From a virus (Duplodnaviria; Caudoviricetes): a stretch of DNA of 64,000 nt. The translations under genes and the position numbers were made by a program. Shown here in pieces: positions 1,385-16,446 of the stretch (positions are counted from its first letter, which is position 1; every line of letters begins with the position of its first letter). Location of the stretch: positions 1 through 64,000 of the IMG/VR virus record IMGVR_UViG_3300037067_007581. One strand, 5' to 3'. The notes beneath the pieces are model-generated. The model was given only the letters and a program-made list of their open reading frames with translations. It had not been told where the DNA came from and made no database searches.

Positions 1385-1553
1385 TTTATTATATGAATAA
1401 GACAAGGTTAAAACAATTAAGGAAGAGATTCTATTCAGAGTTTTTTAGAAATCCCACAAAGAGTGAATTTAGGGTTTATAAAAAGAATTTTATAATTCAA
1501 AAATCACATGGGATTTTACATAAGGATATAGACTAATTATTAATTTTAAAAAT

Positions 1554-1823
1554 ATGAAAACACTAAAAGAATTTTATGACAATTACCTGGACAAAGAGGG
1601 GTATTTAAATATCTCGGTAGTTAACTTTGAGGCTGAACTGACTGAATTATTAAACAGCCTTGTGCCTGAGGAAGAAGAATTACCAGTAAGCGATTGCTCT
1701 TGTAAAAATTTTGACAGGTGTTATAAATGTTCGGGTCTACAAAAAGAGAGGAATGAAATAGCTATAAAAAATAAATGGAAGCGTGAAATTAAGTCTAAAA
1801 TCAGTAGTCTAATTAATAATTAA
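1554..1823 (+). CDS. Hypothetical protein with Cys cluster
   Basis: ORF track; CSCKNFDRCYKC. Confidence 0.5.
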   Translation: MKTLKEFYDNYLDKEGYLNISVVNFEAELTELLNSLVPEEEELPVSDCSCKNFDRCYKCSGLQKERNEIAIKNKWKREIKSKISSLINN

Positions 1824-1828
1824 ATATT

Positions 1829-2077
1829 ATGGGAGAAACAACAACACTAAGTATTATTAGTCAAGAGCAAATTCACGAATTTAGGAAAACAATTTCTGCG
1901 GCGATTAGAACGGCAAGGGGATTTAGTAATGGTTATTTTAAAGAAGTTGGAAGCACTCGCGGAAAAAGAGAAATTGCTCTTGTTATCACTAAACTTCAAG
2001 AAGCAAAAATGTGGTGCGGTAAAGTCTTAGAAGAAATCGGAGAACAATTACCAGAAGAATTTAGAGATGATGTTTAA
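1829..2077 (+). CDS. Acb2/Tad1-like small helical protein (possible cyclic-nucleotide sponge)
   Basis: KREIALVITKLQEAKMW resembles the RExA/SLAxTxLEEAxMW hairpin motif of the Tad1/Acb2-related family. Confidence 0.45.
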   Translation: MGETTTLSIISQEQIHEFRKTISAAIRTARGFSNGYFKEVGSTRGKREIALVITKLQEAKMWCGKVLEEIGEQLPEEFRDDV

Positions 2078-2124
2078 AATAGTTTACTGACAGACTCCCT
2101 TCGGGGAGTAGTGAGTAAATTATT
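2078..2124 (+). other. Intergenic hairpin with UUCG tetraloop
   Basis: ACTCCC-TTCG-GGGAGT (2094-2109), enclosed by AATAGTTTACT/AGTAAATTATT. Confidence 0.75.
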
Positions 2125-2137
2125 GTATTTATTCTGA

Positions 2138-2207
2138 GTGGGCAGGGAATCCCTGCGGATGACTAACGGCATCCGCTATGATGACCGTTATACAATTCAT
2201 AGCCCAC
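2138..2207 (+). ncRNA. Putative structured ncRNA: four-way junction with loop-loop pseudoknot
   Basis: P1 GTGGGC/GCCCAC, P2 AGGG/CCCT, P3 GCGGATG/CATCCGC and P4 TATGA/TCATA abut with no unpaired linkers; loop TAACGG (2164-2169) is complementary to loop CCGTTA (2185-2190). Confidence 0.65.
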
Positions 2208-2250
2208 GTAGTATGAATATAATTAGTGAGTAAATTATTAACTTGAATAT

Positions 2251-2466
2251 ATGAAATTTGATGAATGGTTTATAAGAGGATGGGGCTTAAATAAAACCAT
2301 TAAAAAGATTGAAAAATTGAAGCAGTTAGTTAAAAACAAAGCAGAGCATAACAAAGAACAACGGATTATTTATTCTATGAGAATGGAACTTTATCAGATA
2401 ATTAAGCACCAAAAACTTTTAATGAGACAAGTATTTGAGATTGAGAAGTTGTTTAATAAAAAATAA
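2251..2466 (+). CDS. Hypothetical protein
   Basis: ORF track, AT-rich start context. Confidence 0.5.
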   Translation: MKFDEWFIRGWGLNKTIKKIEKLKQLVKNKAEHNKEQRIIYSMRMELYQIIKHQKLLMRQVFEIEKLFNKK

Positions 2467-2473
2467 TTCTTAA

Positions 2474-2650
2474 CTCTCTCATTGGCAGGATGTGGCGGAA
2501 TAAGACGCTACAAGTAGATTGGCTAAAAACAAAAATTGGCTTTAAGCTCTTGAGGCTCCAACAGGTTGTAAAATTTTACACCGCCCCATATAGGGTGTTG
2601 CCATTTAATCGTATAGACTGAAATTGTCTATCTTCCTGCCAAGTAGAGAG
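2474..2650 (+). ncRNA. Putative tRNA-like structured ncRNA
   Basis: Terminal stem CTCTCT/AGAGAG plus TTGGCAGGA/TCCTGCCAA; D-arm-like TGTGGCG-GAATAAGA-CGCTACA; T-arm-like ATAGAC-TGAAATT-GTCTAT; about 100 nt inserted between the arms. Confidence 0.55.
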
Positions 2651-2670
2651 CTAATAATTAAATATGTTTT

Positions 2671-3000
2671 ATGGATAAGAGAATTTTAAAATTTAGGGCG
2701 TGGAGTAAAAAACTTAAAAGAATGTGGAGCTGGGAAGAGTTAAGAAATTTACCACTATCAGACCTTGAGAGAGATGATTTAGATTGGCTTCAATACAGTG
2801 ATTACGAAGATAAAGAAGGCAAAGAAATTTACGAAGGGGATTTGTTAAAATATCCAAATACTAAAATGGTGTTTGAGGTCATATGGAGAAGAGGAACCTT
2901 TTGTTATCAAGTGTCAGATGGAGTGTTTCAGATTTTTGACCAAACTCAATGCGAAGTTATCGGCAATATTTACGAAAACCCAGACTTACTCACTAAATAA
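2671..3000 (+). CDS. YopX family protein
   Basis: LKFRAW, QYSDYEDKEGKEIYEGD and EVIGNIYENPDLL signature. Confidence 0.9.
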   Translation: MDKRILKFRAWSKKLKRMWSWEELRNLPLSDLERDDLDWLQYSDYEDKEGKEIYEGDLLKYPNTKMVFEVIWRRGTFCYQVSDGVFQIFDQTQCEVIGNIYENPDLLTK

Positions 3001-3005
3001 AAAAT

Positions 3006-3158
3006 ATGGACTCAACTAAGATGTCAGACAAAAAATTGTTAGCAATACATGAAGCATTGTATGGATATTTACTGCTAATAATAAAGAAGAGAGATATTGA
3101 TAAATTAAATGACTTGCTTGAAGTAGAACGTGAATTAACATTAAGAGAAAATTTATAA
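3006..3158 (+). CDS. Small hypothetical protein (not in ORF track)
   Basis: Manually translated: MDSTKMSDKKLLAIHEALYGYLLLIIKKRDIDKLNDLLEVERELTLRENL. Confidence 0.45.
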   Translation: MDSTKMSDKKLLAIHEALYGYLLLIIKKRDIDKLNDLLEVERELTLRENL

Positions 3159-3449
3159 ATAAAAAATATGACCGAGAAAGAAGTAGAATGTAGTCATAAT
3201 TGGTTTGACGATAATTTTAAAGGTTTTACTTATTGTGATAAATGTGGAATAAGTTATAACGACTATATCCACGAAAAAGAAAGGCAAGAATTACTTAACC
3301 AAAAATAATATGACAAGTTTTTGTGATGTTGAAAGTGCTTTATATAATGACTTCGGTATTATTAGATGTCAATATTGTAGCGGACAAGTATCACTTAAGA
3401 GAGAACTGGAATATAAAGATACGAGTTTAATTATTAATATAAACAAAGT

Positions 3450-3599
3450 ATGCCAGAAGAAGAATTAAATCCAGAGGAAGAAACTGCGTCTCCAGAAAGT
3501 GTTGAGGAACAAGAAGCGTTACCGGAAGACGAGGAAGGTTCTGATAGTGGTCTCGAAGACACAGAAGAAGAGGAAGAAGAAGATTTGGACGAAGAATAG
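3450..3599 (+). CDS. Extremely acidic 49-aa peptide (not in ORF track)
   Basis: MPEEELNPEEETASPESVEEQEALPEDEEGSDSGLEDTEEEEEEDLDEE; 27 of 49 residues are D/E and there is no K/R. Confidence 0.65.
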   Translation: MPEEELNPEEETASPESVEEQEALPEDEEGSDSGLEDTEEEEEEDLDEE

Positions 3600-3722
3600 A
3601 AATTAATGGGCGGGCTGGAAGGTTTTTATTTCTTTGAGCCTCATAAACGCCCGTGGAGTAACCAGTCTAAACTCCACAGTAACAACAATTATTTATATAT
3701 TAATTTATTAAGGAAACAACCT

Positions 3723-4658
3723 ATGAGTTATTTTCTTGACGATAATGGCAATTTAAAGCCTAAATTAGTCATTTACGCTATTATTGGGTTATTTATTACA
3801 CTAATAGTCATAGCAAATTTGCCCTTTAAGGTCGTAGGGGCAACAGAGAGAGGTTTAGTATTTAATATGGGAGCTATTCAGGATAAGGTTTTAAGTCAGG
3901 GTTTTAATTTCCGAATACCTTTTTACCAGCAAATTAAGGTTATTACTATTCAGCCTATTCAGTTAGACCATAAAGTTGAGGTAGGACGAGACGCGGCTAT
4001 CACTAAAGATAATCAATCAATCGGTGCAGATTTAACTATTTTTTATAAATATAATCAAAATGATTTAGTTAGAATGTATAAAGATTATGGTGTTGATAAT
4101 TTAAAAAGTATTATTTTATCCACATTAAGAGAGAGTTTTAAAGGTACTATTGGCGAATATGATATCTTTACTTTGCCTACTATTCAGGATGAAATCCGTG
4201 GTAAAGTTTTAGTAAAGATTAGGGAAAAGATGTCTTCTTATCCTATTGAAATTACGGAATTAAAAATAGTCAATTATGATTGGTCAGATGAATTTGATAA
4301 GCAAATTCAACAGACAATGGAACGGGCACAGCAGGTAAAACAAAAAGAGCAAGAGCTTTTAATTGCAGAGCAGGAAGCACAGAAGAAAGTTAAACAGGCA
4401 ACTGCGGATAAGGAAGCGATGATTACAATAGCTGAAGGACAAAAAGAAGCCGCAGCTTTAAATGCAGATGCTAAAGCATTAGAGGGTGAGGGTATTAAGA
4501 AATATAATGTTTCTGTTCAAGCTAATATGGAACTTGAGATAAGGTTAAGGCAGTTAGAAATTGAGAAGGCAAGAGTTGATAAATGGGACGGCCATTATGT
4601 TTCTACTAATAATTATTCGCCTATTCCTATTAGTAATAGTGCTTTATTAGGTCAATAA
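3723..4658 (+). CDS. SPFH/Band 7/prohibitin family membrane protein
   Basis: TM helix, then VVGATERGLVFNMG, GFNFRIPFYQQI and a C-terminal coiled coil. ATG 3723 follows AAGGA; the ORF-track start at 3606 lies in a structured leader. Confidence 0.9.
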   Translation: MSYFLDDNGNLKPKLVIYAIIGLFITLIVIANLPFKVVGATERGLVFNMGAIQDKVLSQGFNFRIPFYQQIKVITIQPIQLDHKVEVGRDAAITKDNQSIGADLTIFYKYNQNDLVRMYKDYGVDNLKSIILSTLRESFKGTIGEYDIFTLPTIQDEIRGKVLVKIREKMSSYPIEITELKIVNYDWSDEFDKQIQQTMERAQQVKQKEQELLIAEQEAQKKVKQATADKEAMITIAEGQKEAAALNADAKALEGEGIKKYNVSVQANMELEIRLRQLEIEKARVDKWDGHYVSTNNYSPIPISNSALLGQ

Positions 4659-7388: not shown

Positions 7389-7418
7389 GGCACTTATAAC
7401 GCATTATAAGTTGTTCTT

Positions 7419-7464
7419 TTATCCACAGCAAAAAGTTGACAAAGTTTAAAAAGTAATATATACT
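7419..7464 (+). promoter_or_regulatory. Sigma70-type promoter with upstream DnaA box
   Basis: TTATCCACA 7419-7427, TTGACA 7436-7441, 17-nt spacer, TATACT 7459-7464. Confidence 0.85.
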
Positions 7465-7513
7465 TAAATTATAAATAGTTCATTGACAATTGAAAAGGGA
7501 AGAAAAATATAAT

Positions 7514-11594: not shown

Positions 11595-12782
11595 ATGAAA
11601 GTAATCTCAACAGAAAAAATACCAATTAAAATGTGGCTAGAAGAAATTGAAGACGGAGCGGTTGAACAAGCTAAAAACCTTGCTAATTTGCCTTTTGCTT
11701 TTAAGCATATTGCGATAATGCCAGATAGTCATATTGGCTATGGTATGCCTATTGGTGGAGTATTGGCTACAAAGGATGTAATTGTCCCAAATTCTGTCGG
11801 TGTTGATATTGGATGTGGAATGTGTGCCGTAAAAACTTCTTTGACCGAATTAGACACTCCAACACTTAAAAAGATAATGGGTGAAATTAGAAAACAAATC
11901 CCAGTCGGGTTTGGACACCATAAAGAAAAACAAGACGAGAACTTAATGCCTCGTATTCCGTTAGCAACAGAACCTATTGTGAATGAGGAATATAATTCAG
12001 CCTTAACTCAAATAGGAACTCTTGGCGGTGGTAATCACTTTATAGAAATTCAAAAAGGTTCCGATGGTTATATTTGGATAATGATACATTCTGGGTCAAG
12101 AAATCTTGGATTAAAAATTGCTAAGTATTATAATGATTTGGCTATCAAATTAAATAAGAAATGGTTTAGTGAAGTTGACCCTAAATGGGAATTAGCATTT
12201 TTACCTATTGAAAGTGATGAAGGTCAGGCGTATATCAGGGAAATGAATTATGCGGTTGAATTTGCTCTGGCTAATAGAAAATTAATGATGGACAGAATAA
12301 TGAAAATAATTTATGACACTATTGAAGTTTCTTCAGAAGATGGACAATTTGGTGGAGTAACTTTCGAGCCGATGATAAATATCGCTCATAACTATGCTCA
12401 AATGGAAAATCATTTTGGTGAGAATGTAATGGTTCATAGAAAAGGGGCGACACTTGCCAGAAAAGATACTATTGGGATTATTCCAGGGAGCCAAGGAACA
12501 AAAAGTTATATTGTTAAGGGTTTAGGTAATAAGGAAAGTTTTGAAAGTTGCTCTCACGGAGTTGGTAGAAAAATGGGCAGAAAAGATGCTGAAAGAAGAT
12601 TAAATTTAGAGGATGAGATTAAAATGCTTGACGACCAGGGAATTTTACACGCCATTAGAGGAAAAGCAGATTTGGATGAAGCACCTGGTGCTTATAAAGA
12701 TATAAAAACAGTAATGGATAATCAATCTGATTTAGTAGAGATATTAGTAGAATTAACTCCGTTGGGAGTTATTAAGGGGTAA
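11595..12782 (+). CDS. rtcB: RtcB RNA ligase
   Basis: MPDSH, VGVDIGCG, GTLGGGNHFIE, HSGSR, HNY, HRKGAT and DEAPGAYK motifs. Confidence 0.95.
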   Translation: MKVISTEKIPIKMWLEEIEDGAVEQAKNLANLPFAFKHIAIMPDSHIGYGMPIGGVLATKDVIVPNSVGVDIGCGMCAVKTSLTELDTPTLKKIMGEIRKQIPVGFGHHKEKQDENLMPRIPLATEPIVNEEYNSALTQIGTLGGGNHFIEIQKGSDGYIWIMIHSGSRNLGLKIAKYYNDLAIKLNKKWFSEVDPKWELAFLPIESDEGQAYIREMNYAVEFALANRKLMMDRIMKIIYDTIEVSSEDGQFGGVTFEPMINIAHNYAQMENHFGENVMVHRKGATLARKDTIGIIPGSQGTKSYIVKGLGNKESFESCSHGVGRKMGRKDAERRLNLEDEIKMLDDQGILHAIRGKADLDEAPGAYKDIKTVMDNQSDLVEILVELTPLGVIKG

Positions 12783-12788
12783 TTGTTG

Positions 12789-12861
12789 TATGATAGATTA
12801 GTCTCTAAAAAAGATGATAGCTCGCCTGCCGTCATCAGTCTAAAGAGGCTAATCTATTATA
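12789..12861 (+). other. Long intergenic RNA hairpin after rtcB
   Basis: TATGATAGATTAGTCTCT/AGAGGCTAATCTATTATA: 18 bp including 2 G-U pairs, plus inner GATGAT/GTCATC. Confidence 0.7.
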
Positions 12862-12881
12862 TAATAATTAACTAAAATTTT

Positions 12882-15221: not shown

Positions 15222-15232
15222 TGTGTTATAAT
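15222..15232 (+). promoter_or_regulatory. Extended -10 promoter
   Basis: TGTGTTATAAT (TRTGn-TATAAT); the predicted start at about 15239 coincides with the 5' end of the structured RNA. Confidence 0.65.
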
Positions 15233-15238
15233 ATTAGA

Positions 15239-15392
15239 ATAAGTTTCTGAAAGCCCGAGAGGGTTAAGAATTAACCAATGCGCGGCAACAGTTTGGGAAA
15301 CAGCCTTAATCTTTGACTCCCGTGAGCGAGAGTTAAGGATTGGGCTTTCAGGAACTTATCTATTAAAAAATGGGGTCAAGTCAAGGAGTCAA
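15239..15392 (+). ncRNA. Putative riboswitch-like structured leader / ncRNA
   Basis: 20-bp closing stem 15239-15258/15340-15359 with G-U pairs; three internal hairpins; TTGACTCC 15313-15320 is complementary to SD-containing GGAGTCAA 15385-15392. Confidence 0.65.
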
Positions 15393-15395
15393 GTT

Positions 15396-15773
15396 ATGTT
15401 AAAAAAAATTATTAAAGTATGGCACACAGTCAAAGGTCACGATAAGTTCATAGAAAGTAGCACCTTAGAGGAATATGAGAAAGAGCTAAATCCTAACTAT
15501 TTTCATGGGTTGGGAGACTATTCATTCATTCAGTCCAGAATGAGTAAGTTATTAGGAATGGTTCTAACAGTTATTGACGCTTCAATATCCGACAAGGTTC
15601 AAAATAAAGCCATTAAGGATTTAATCAAAACAGACTTTGTAGAGGAATATGCTTTCCTTTCAGAGAGTTTAATTGACGACCAATACATTCAGGATGCACA
15701 AGAGGACGTAGCTTTGGAAGACTTGGGGGAAGTAGATGCGCTGGCGGTCGTTGAAGAAGACGCAAAACGCTAA
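15396..15773 (+). CDS. Hypothetical protein with acidic C-terminus
   Basis: ORF track; AAGGAG SD upstream. Confidence 0.65.
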   Translation: MLKKIIKVWHTVKGHDKFIESSTLEEYEKELNPNYFHGLGDYSFIQSRMSKLLGMVLTVIDASISDKVQNKAIKDLIKTDFVEEYAFLSESLIDDQYIQDAQEDVALEDLGEVDALAVVEEDAKR

Positions 15774-16332: not shown

Positions 16333-16417
16333 AAACTTTCTTAGTATATTTAGCATTATTATATTTGTCTTATTAAGTTTTCTTTTAGTACTAACTGTAT
16401 GTGGCTTTAAGTAAAAC

Positions 16418-16446
16418 TTGACAAAATAAAAAAGGTACTGTATAGT
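16418..16446 (+). promoter_or_regulatory. Sigma70-type promoter of the modification operon
   Basis: TTGACA 16418-16423, 17-nt spacer, TATAGT 16441-16446. Confidence 0.85.

Follow-up and report, generated by a model that had tools for sequence, protein, structure and literature searches.

An intergenic element of 70 nt (positions 2138–2207, plus strand) in the genome of an uncultured phage reads as a perfect four-way RNA junction, two neighboring arms of which carry exactly complementary loops. We regard this element as a credible but unproven candidate for a one-off structured RNA that is specific to its lineage. It was found in a 64-kb window, by which we mean the whole 64,000-nt stretch of DNA analyzed here; the window is the start of an 86-kb IMG/VR virus record, and the phage genome is at least 86 kb in length. 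The element is the core of a larger block (2125–2223) that looks like a discrete insertion, judging from a 16-bp duplication at its borders, its foreign GC content, and its absence from relatives. This is the best-supported single conclusion of the analysis.

The four-way junction and its loops

Four helices make up the core, as determined by direct reading of the plus strand and by RNAfold. H1 (2138–2143/2202–2207; GTGGGC/GCCCAC, 6 bp) closes the structure around three hairpins: H2 (2144–2147/2151–2154; AGGG/CCCT, 4 bp, loop AAT), H3 (2155–2161/2170–2176; GCGGATG/CATCCGC, 7 bp, loop ACTAACGG), and H4 (2177–2181/2197–2201; TATGA/TCATA, 5 bp, 15-nt loop). The first-pass annotation of this DNA had described the helices as abutting one another with no unpaired bases at the junction, and direct reading agrees: 22 of the 22 core pairs are Watson-Crick, the number of unpaired junction bases is zero, and the loops measure 3, 8, and 15 nt. 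The complement claimed for the loops of helices 3 and 4 (TAACGG/CCGTTA) is likewise exact. The segment UAACGG of loop 3 lies at 2164–2169 and its partner CCGUUA of loop 4 at 2185–2190, both on the plus strand, and the predicted 6-bp L3-L4 duplex has an energy of -6.8 kcal/mol. A second candidate contact, in which the 3′ half of loop 4 would pair with 2122–2128 over 7 nt, was dropped as not significant (p = 0.13).

The MFE form of the element is a branch-migrated isomer with arms of 4/6/5/7 bp (-27.8 kcal/mol), while the form drawn first, with arms of 6/4/7/5 bp, has an energy of -27.1 kcal/mol. There is a third isomer (5/5/6/6), and all three are perfect and fall within 0.7 kcal/mol of one another. 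The two innermost pairs of H1 and the two pairs that open H3 are both G-C/C-G, which lets the junction slide by 2 bp; H1 and H4 together contribute 11 bp in every isomer, as do H2 and H3. Linker-free four-way junctions are expected to stack pairwise in an antiparallel form, as exemplified by the natural hairpin ribozyme. Stacking of this type, with H1 on H4 and H2 on H3, would set arms 3 and 4 alongside each other, making an intramolecular 6-bp clamp between their loops geometrically sensible.

Statistics for the rarity of the MFE, the GC content, the junction, and the loop match are all post hoc figures; even so, their combination makes a chance origin of the fold unlikely. The MFE of -27.8 kcal/mol (RNAfold) corresponds to a z-score of approximately -4.0 to -4.2 and was reached by 0 of 200 dinucleotide shuffles in one set and 1 of 5000 in another. 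With a GC content of 0.53, compared to 0.325 for the genome, the element ranks in the top 0.2% of the genome's 70-nt windows. The 6-nt match between loops 3 and 4 has a p-value of 0.006 against loop shuffles and 0.011 against genome composition. We also ran a descriptor scan for a perfect stem that encloses three perfect hairpins with no bases between them, counting junctions of at least 20 bp. Within the 86-kb genome the element is the sole perfect four-way junction of that size. The same scan of 2.34 Mb of other phage DNA returned three such junctions, and one after that DNA had been shuffled. The three were considered as possible kin and rejected, as they are AT-rich or coding palindromes unrelated to the element.

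Genomic setting and the putatively inserted block

The element occupies part of a 173-nt spacer between two ORFs (1829–2077 and 2251–2466), which confirms its first description as intergenic. The upstream gene (1829–2077, plus strand) encodes an 82-aa Acb2/Tad1-hairpin-like small protein (Pfam PF24729). The protein scores 21.1 bits against PF24729, under the cut-off of 27, and most of its homologues have a match to this family. Besides itself there are 21 homologues, at 45–70% identity. The closest of these (70% identity, Logan SRR26784438) is followed by a 294-nt gap. The downstream gene (2251–2466, plus strand) encodes a 71-aa protein of no known family; it has no Pfam or PHROG match, and among 1.84 billion representatives it has five remote homologues with 38–44% identity.

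All ORFs of at least 150 aa lie on the plus strand with the exception of one, which is nested within a plus-strand ORF of 690 aa. The genome has HK97-like head genes and also encodes a portal, a large terminase, and an RtcB RNA ligase. The RtcB gene is located 9 kb from the element, and a RuvC-like resolvase is encoded at 72–566. No cultured phage is close to this one, the best helicase identity being 34%.

A consensus sigma-70-type promoter, TTGACA-17-TATAAT, is found at 894–922 on the plus strand (12/12 consensus match) within a conserved cassette. Near-identical copies of the cassette occur at 894–922, 7436–7464, and 16418–16446, and one related phage has a similar box. The promoters at 894 and 7436 are the only strong ones near the element, weaker matches being no commoner than in shuffles, and no intrinsic terminator is predicted in 1500–3700. 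We infer that the element is transcribed within a polycistronic RNA that originates at the 894–922 promoter and starts near 930. The genes of this phage have AT-rich junctions ahead of them and no Shine-Dalgarno sites, and thus the GC-rich fold is not a mask for a ribosome binding site. Very stable hairpins are also present in other intergenic regions, which makes structured punctuation a habit of this phage genome. GC-rich structured inserts occur at 2125–2223, 2474–2650, and 15222–15398; these three and the other structured spacers have no sequence in common, apart from a shell.

Outside the core, the closing stem extends outward into P0, the 5′ strand of which (2125–2137, plus strand) pairs with 2209–2220. 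The pairing of 2125–2136 with 2209–2220 comprises 8+3 bp with single-base mismatches and includes three G·U pairs. P0 and the closing stem P1 together amount to 17 bp with two single-base mismatches, and could stack on H4 or H2; with P0 included, the folded unit is ~99 nt long (2125–2223). The 3′ strand of P0 (2208–2223, plus strand) contains a weak promoter-like TATAAT at 2218–2223. This is probably a chance match, as it agrees at 10/12 positions and such matches are no commoner than in shuffles.

Upstream of P0 is hairpin A (2078–2124, plus strand), taken from the MFE structure of a 181-nt spacer. It consists of an 11-bp AU-rich outer helix (2078–2088/2114–2124) around a 6-bp hairpin with a UUCG cap, which we located at 2094–2109 and which had been noted earlier as preceding the element. 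Hairpin A has a U-rich run after it and could attenuate transcription ahead of the element. It contains one G·U pair, favoring the plus strand as the strand that folds. The 181-nt spacer has a folding energy of -64.3 kcal/mol on the plus strand (z = -7.45) versus -48.9 kcal/mol on the minus strand. This advantage of ~15 kcal/mol and the four G·U pairs found in total across the flanking helices (P0 and the upstream hairpin) suggest that the structure belongs to RNA of the plus strand and not to palindromic DNA.

The block is bracketed exactly by a direct repeat. The 16-mer TAGTGAGTAAATTATT is present at 2109 and 2224 only, as identical plus-strand copies at 2109–2124 and 2224–2239, the second of which ends 11 nt before the next start codon; between them lie the 99 nt of the block. 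Shuffling the spacer 2000 times gave repeats of at most 12 nt, compared to the 16 nt observed. Without the block and one copy of the repeat, the spacer would be 58 nt long and consist of the hairpin, the 16-mer, and a start codon 11 nt on. A repeat of 16 bp could also originate by routes other than insertion. Translational bypass between the two copies was considered and rejected, as the repeat is not part of the upstream ORF and contains stop codons when read in the downstream frame.

Known RNA families and the search for relatives

The first-pass annotation had proposed a search of Rfam, and this recovered no known family at gathering score: with Rfam 15 at gathering thresholds, none matched in the whole window. 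When the threshold was relaxed to E ≤ 10 on 2050–2300, no match went beyond the first few bases of 2138–2207. What this search did return was a sub-threshold Whalefall-1 match and two snoRNA noise matches, all on the upstream hairpins. The Whalefall-1 match (RF01762; 17.2 bits versus a cut-off of 37, E = 0.04) covers 2090–2143 and not the four-way junction, and was rejected; the Whalefall-1 consensus pattern found nothing in IMG/VR. A tRNA was also rejected. ARAGORN finds none in the window, and RF00005 does not match. A tRNA cloverleaf has a 7-bp acceptor stem, linkers at 8-9 and 26, a 7-nt anticodon loop, and the T-loop consensus, whereas the element has a 6-bp closing stem, no linkers, and loops of 3, 8, and 15 nt. 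On the genome as a whole ARAGORN reports one unrelated tRNA-Leu at 81444, and its permissive mitochondrial mode gave noise only.

Models of the hammerhead, twister, twister-sister, pistol, hatchet, hairpin, and HDV-like ribozymes gave no match at E ≤ 10, in keeping with the initial remark that hammerhead, twister, pistol, and HDV cores could not be recognized. Riboswitch, pRNA, and Y-RNA models did not match the element either. As no arm is interrupted and every junction base is paired, known catalytic cores and junction pockets cannot be placed in this fold. The element had been called an unclassified compact ncRNA, possibly a ribozyme, nuclease-resistant RNA, or aptamer. That it is unclassified holds, given the lack of any Rfam or tRNA match and the exceptional plus-strand fold, while nothing positive was found for any of these three functions.

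Comparison with individual systems is nevertheless informative. A likeness to purine riboswitches had been suggested, and it is retained for the loop-loop pairing, where a 6-nt complement is predicted, but not for the three-way junction with its pocket bases. The purine riboswitch (RF00167) and the element both have side-by-side helices, Watson-Crick pairs between loops, a closing P1 stem, and a length of ~70 nt. However, RF00167 is a three-way junction in which unpaired strands form the pocket, whereas the element is a four-way junction with none unpaired; the loop contact is 2 bp in the former and 6 bp in the latter, and the element has neither an expression platform nor a match to the model. 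In the natural hairpin ribozyme, a perfect 4H junction brings elements of two adjacent arms into contact. There, two internal loops dock to form the active site, whereas the arms of the element are perfect, the contact involves terminal loops, and no model matches.

The pRNA of phi29 (RF00044) is, like the element, a small phage RNA whose multi-helix junction is accompanied by a long imperfect stem and complementary loops. It differs in that its junction is three-way and its loops pair between molecules, building a ring at the portal in phages that are small and protein-primed. The phage under study is unlike phi29, being at least 86 kb in size with a canonical large terminase and portal, and RF00044 does not match. 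PeSL cassettes of T4-type phages are repeated promoter-plus-hairpin units (PMC2839356, PMC4122927). They resemble the element as short intergenic modules in gene-shuffling regions, accompanied by orphan small genes and short flanking homologies, and these homologies permit insertion and excision (PMC2839356, PMC4122927). Insertion of the block would likewise resemble cassette movement in the hyperplastic regions of T4-type phages (PMC2839356), except that the block is not repeated. Assignment as a PeSL-type cassette was rejected, as the element occurs once, lies outside the promoter cassette of the phage, and has no significant internal promoter. The element is unlike all of the families tested; it is most sensibly grouped, by kind, with multi-helix junction RNAs that have a loop-loop clamp.

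Relatives of the element were sought by sequence, by pattern, and with a covariance model. Blastn with 701-nt and 98-nt queries against 50,697 phage records found no homologue. Neither the H3 hairpin pattern nor the H1-H3 pattern found a homologue in IMG/VR, and a pattern of the flank plus start codon found no relative there. A pattern consisting of both loops and a free spacer matched 90 stretches of IMG/VR, 80 loci of which were screened with the model and were all chance. In one genome per GTDB species, a 19-base H1-H3 pattern gave 19 chance matches, in GC-rich genomes. JGI metagenomes contained no homologue by a 28-position pattern (eight junction-closing pairs plus two loop segments) or by a hairpin-plus-repeat pattern. 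An empty site was matched neither by the flank and start-codon pattern in IMG/VR nor by the hairpin and repeat pattern in the JGI metagenomes.

The covariance model of the element finds a single copy in the whole phage and no second one. It has no match in 80 helicase-related IMG/VR loci (1.3 Mb), in three syntenic relatives (~53% helicase identity), in the contexts of homologues of the upstream and downstream genes, or in 453 sampled bacterial genomes from three phyla. Beside those upstream-gene homologues for which DNA or gene positions were available, the element was not found, and either the next gene is close or the spacer is unrelated. Three homologues of the downstream gene were looked up; each abuts its upstream neighbor, and the model finds no element in their loci. 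In all sequence searched (IMG/VR, JGI, GTDB, syntenic relatives, and flanking-gene homologues), the element is a singleton.

Possible roles of the element

The insertion signature of the block is compatible with a role of the RNA in cis, with a role in trans, and with no function at all. The explanation we favor, tentatively and with less than even confidence, is that the element acts in cis as a processing or stability module between the messages on either side. A ~99-nt GC-rich block (2125–2223) would have been inserted into the short spacer of two small early genes, leaving the 16-bp duplication on both sides of it. Plus-strand transcription from the 894–922 promoter would then include the block in a polycistronic RNA, which is predicted to fold into an imperfect ~17-bp stem topped by the perfect four-helix junction, with arms H3 and H4 locked side by side by the putative 6-bp loop-loop helix. 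This clamp would freeze the junction as a rigid closed body above the 17-bp stem. A double-strand-specific RNase could enter at the long stem, and exonucleases could be stopped at the clamped junction. In this manner the message of the Acb2/Tad1-like gene would be made independent, in stability and expression, of the next gene's message, and a small stable RNA might be released.

We favor punctuation in cis because of the position of the element in an operon, because it lacks its own promoter, terminator, and expression platform, and because other spacers of this phage contain stable hairpins. Phage T7 offers a comparison: its early and late transcripts have intercistronic RNase III hairpins with an internal loop, ~10 per genome. 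Similar to the element, the T7 hairpins are stable, are placed between the cistrons of a polycistronic RNA, and have a long imperfect stem. They are recurrent simple hairpins, however, whereas the element is single-copy and branched. An RNase III-type site calls for about two helical turns of largely continuous double strand; P0 and P1 supply 17 bp with two single-base mismatches. Since a plain hairpin is enough to stop exonucleases or to serve RNase III-type cleavage, a punctuation role leaves the elaborate fold unexplained.

It is possible, although we think it unlikely, that the element is instead a small stable RNA that is excised from the operon transcript and acts in trans as a decoy, sponge, or scaffold in an anti-defense or accessory region. 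Its compact, GC-rich, self-contained fold and long terminal stem are typical of excised stable RNAs, its neighbors include the Acb2/Tad1-like gene and, at 2474–2650, another orphan structured RNA, and the RtcB RNA ligase of the phage suggests an investment in RNA-level conflict. In a variant of this proposal, the loops might pair between molecules, hand in hand, as in phi29 pRNA rings or in ROOL/GOLLD; the six-nt complementary loops of the element match pRNA-type self-association, which relies on loops of this length (PMC4201828). Yet no pRNA match was obtained at E ≤ 10, and both the large terminase and the portal of the phage are canonical. Adjacent arms in a linker-free junction moreover favor a contact within the molecule over self-association. 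The absence of a promoter and terminator belonging to the element weighs against any independent RNA, as does the failure to find a homologue, since phage ncRNAs that have a function are as a rule shared by the members of a genus, if not more widely.

A functionless insertion, selfish or neutral, has a similarly small chance of being correct. The block would then be either a scar left by recombination or a mobile element of the miniature, palindromic type, and the fold a by-product of nested inverted repeats. The 16-bp duplication, the imperfect terminal inverted repeats formed by P0, the foreign GC content, and the restriction to this phage are all consistent with such an origin, and the block is missing from all related contexts examined. 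Miniature mobile or repeat elements (MITE, REP/BIME, ERIC-like) are expected to have terminal inverted repeats and a flanking target duplication; the block has imperfect inverted ends (P0) and a direct repeat of 16 bp, which is longer than transposase duplications usually are. Elements of these types also have many dispersed copies per genome, whereas the phage has one, and no true copy turned up in GTDB species genomes with the 19-base pattern or in the 453 sampled genomes with the model. More generally, known miniature elements are multi-copy and have duplications far below 16 bp, whereas this block is single-copy in the phage, with no copy in the searches of GTDB species, the 453 genomes, IMG/VR, and JGI. 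The abutment of four helices and the loop complement also represent more order than terminal repeats require.

The most far-reaching proposal is a long shot: the element would be the first member of an undescribed class of linker-free, kissing-loop-clamped four-way-junction RNAs in phage anti-defense islands, acting in trans alongside the Acb2/Tad1-like sponge protein, either by self-assembly through its loops or by binding a host defense component or signal. If the element is real and functional, a natural RNA of very small size would reach a rigid, closed fold in three dimensions with nothing beyond Watson-Crick helices, a junction free of linkers, and a single loop-loop helix. Such a design would be relevant to RNA structure and nanotechnology, and would add to the growing hints that phage accessory and anti-defense regions contain many uncatalogued folded RNAs. 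As a singleton, the element is chiefly worth a straightforward probing experiment, for which it is a clearly delimited candidate.

A site that acts as DNA, whether through nested operators or by using its inverted repeats in recombination or replication, is improbable. The sequence AGGGAATCCCT is a perfect 11-bp palindrome, the 22/22 Watson-Crick pairs of the core are equally palindromic on both strands, and the branch migration of the junction is Holliday-like in a phage that encodes a RuvC-like resolvase (72–566). Protein-binding palindromes, however, have no need of a nested arrangement in which one outer repeat closes three inner ones, and the boxes are not repeated elsewhere in the genome. 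The G·U pairs of the flanking helices and the much better folding of the plus strand also point away from DNA.

A riboswitch-like aptamer controlling the downstream 71-aa gene is very unlikely. The element does lie 43 nt upstream of the start codon, its loop-locked side-by-side helices recall the purine and lysine aptamers, and the 16-nt repeat can pair alternatively with 2078–2088. A pocket, on the other hand, would need free bases in the junction or in an internal loop, and the element has none; no riboswitch model matches, the three homologues of the downstream gene that were looked up have no leader of any kind, and with no terminator and with genes that lack Shine-Dalgarno sites there is no expression platform.

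We give hardly any weight to a small self-cleaving ribozyme, in spite of the attraction that its 2′,3′-cyclic phosphate and 5′-OH products would be substrates for the RtcB encoded 9 kb away. The combination of a multi-helix junction and a tertiary clamp is reminiscent of the hammerhead and hairpin ribozymes, but no model matches at E ≤ 10, and perfect helices and a perfect junction leave no room for the known cores. It is just as hard to credit a 31-codon protein gene running from GTG at 2138 to TAA at 2231–2233, with the RNA structure incidental. The frame opens exactly where the element begins and ends within copy 2 of the repeat, but its per-codon log-odds of -0.16 compare poorly with 0.14–0.6 for real genes and 0.08–0.27 for the small neighbors. 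Three of its five Arg codons are CGN where the genome prefers AGA, it has no Pfam match, and its GTG start is buried in H1.

Least probable of all is a chance cluster of palindromes without biological meaning: the element is a singleton without the support of conservation, but 1 in 5000 shuffles attains its MFE, its GC content is in the top 0.2%, its loop complement has p ~ 0.01, and a perfect four-way junction of at least 20 bp arises about once per 2.3 Mb of shuffled phage DNA.

Structured RNAs in the early region and their distant relatives

Approximately 0.3 kb downstream of the four-way-junction element (2138-2207, plus strand) lies a neighbouring orphan structured RNA at 2474-2650, which has a fold z of -5.0 and returned no Rfam match, even at E ≤ 5. 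A paralogous "shell" of this RNA was found 64 kb distant, outside the window, at positions 67010-67078 of the whole phage genome. The two copies share identical terminal stem halves, CTCTCATTGGCAGG and CCTGCCAAGTAGAGAG, and in both of them the stem halves are followed by CTAATAATTAA. The interior enclosed by the stem halves is approximately 145 nt in the 2.5-kb copy versus approximately 34 nt in the 67-kb copy. Because the shell is the same and the interiors differ in this way, the 2.5-kb copy looks like the 67-kb hairpin bearing a structured insertion.

The whole genome's most stable 100-nt window is found elsewhere, in a hairpin of approximately 30 bp at 12781-12870 that directly follows an RtcB-type RNA ligase (PHROG 1075, E = 7e-122); both the ligase and the adjoining hairpin lie within 11595-12880.

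Potential pairing and an overlapping ORF at the element

The 3' half of loop 4, the 15-nt loop of the fourth helix, reads AUACAAU (2190-2196) and is complementary to AUUGUAU at 2122-2128, on the border between repeat copy 1 and P0, the outward extension of the closing stem. Taken alone, this complement falls short of significance (p = 0.13); with it, almost none of loop 4 is left without a possible pairing partner. The element's first base is also the start of a 31-codon ORF (2138-2233), which opens with GTG and terminates within repeat copy 2. Codon usage speaks against its being a coding gene.

Genes around the element

The 82-aa protein encoded upstream of the element (1829-2077) matches the Acb2/Tad1 hairpin domain with 21.1 bits, below the Pfam cut-off of 27. 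A precomputed match to the same domain is present in most of its 21 homologues, and the contig of one homologue also encodes a Tad2-like protein. At the locus of a phage carrying a homologue of this upstream gene, a GC-rich GCAA-loop hairpin, TTCTGCGGGGCAACCCGC, is repeated after two genes (positions 948-966 and 1487-1506 of that locus). It resembles PeSL in being a repeated stem-loop, and its position is comparable to that of the UUCG hairpin 5' of the element.

A 350-aa protein (3606-4658) contains an SPFH/Band 7 domain (Pfam E = 5e-25) and is labelled "lipoprotein" in PHROGs. In the relative L120, the Band_7, LemA and TPM-phosphatase genes are consecutive.

Promoters and gene starts

The window contains three copies of a conserved promoter cassette, TTTATCCACA ... 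TTGACAAAGT ... TATAAT, at 872-932, 7414-7474 and 16413-16446. A recognisably similar box occurs at about 6950-7010 in L120, whose helicase is only about 53% identical. The conserved promoters of the phage are of the classical -35/-10 type. Throughout the genome the Shine-Dalgarno motif is essentially absent at gene starts, and AT-rich junctions of the TAATTAATAATTAA type lie 5' of them. For guessing the host, classical -35/-10 promoters together with a near-absent Shine-Dalgarno motif are an unusual pairing.
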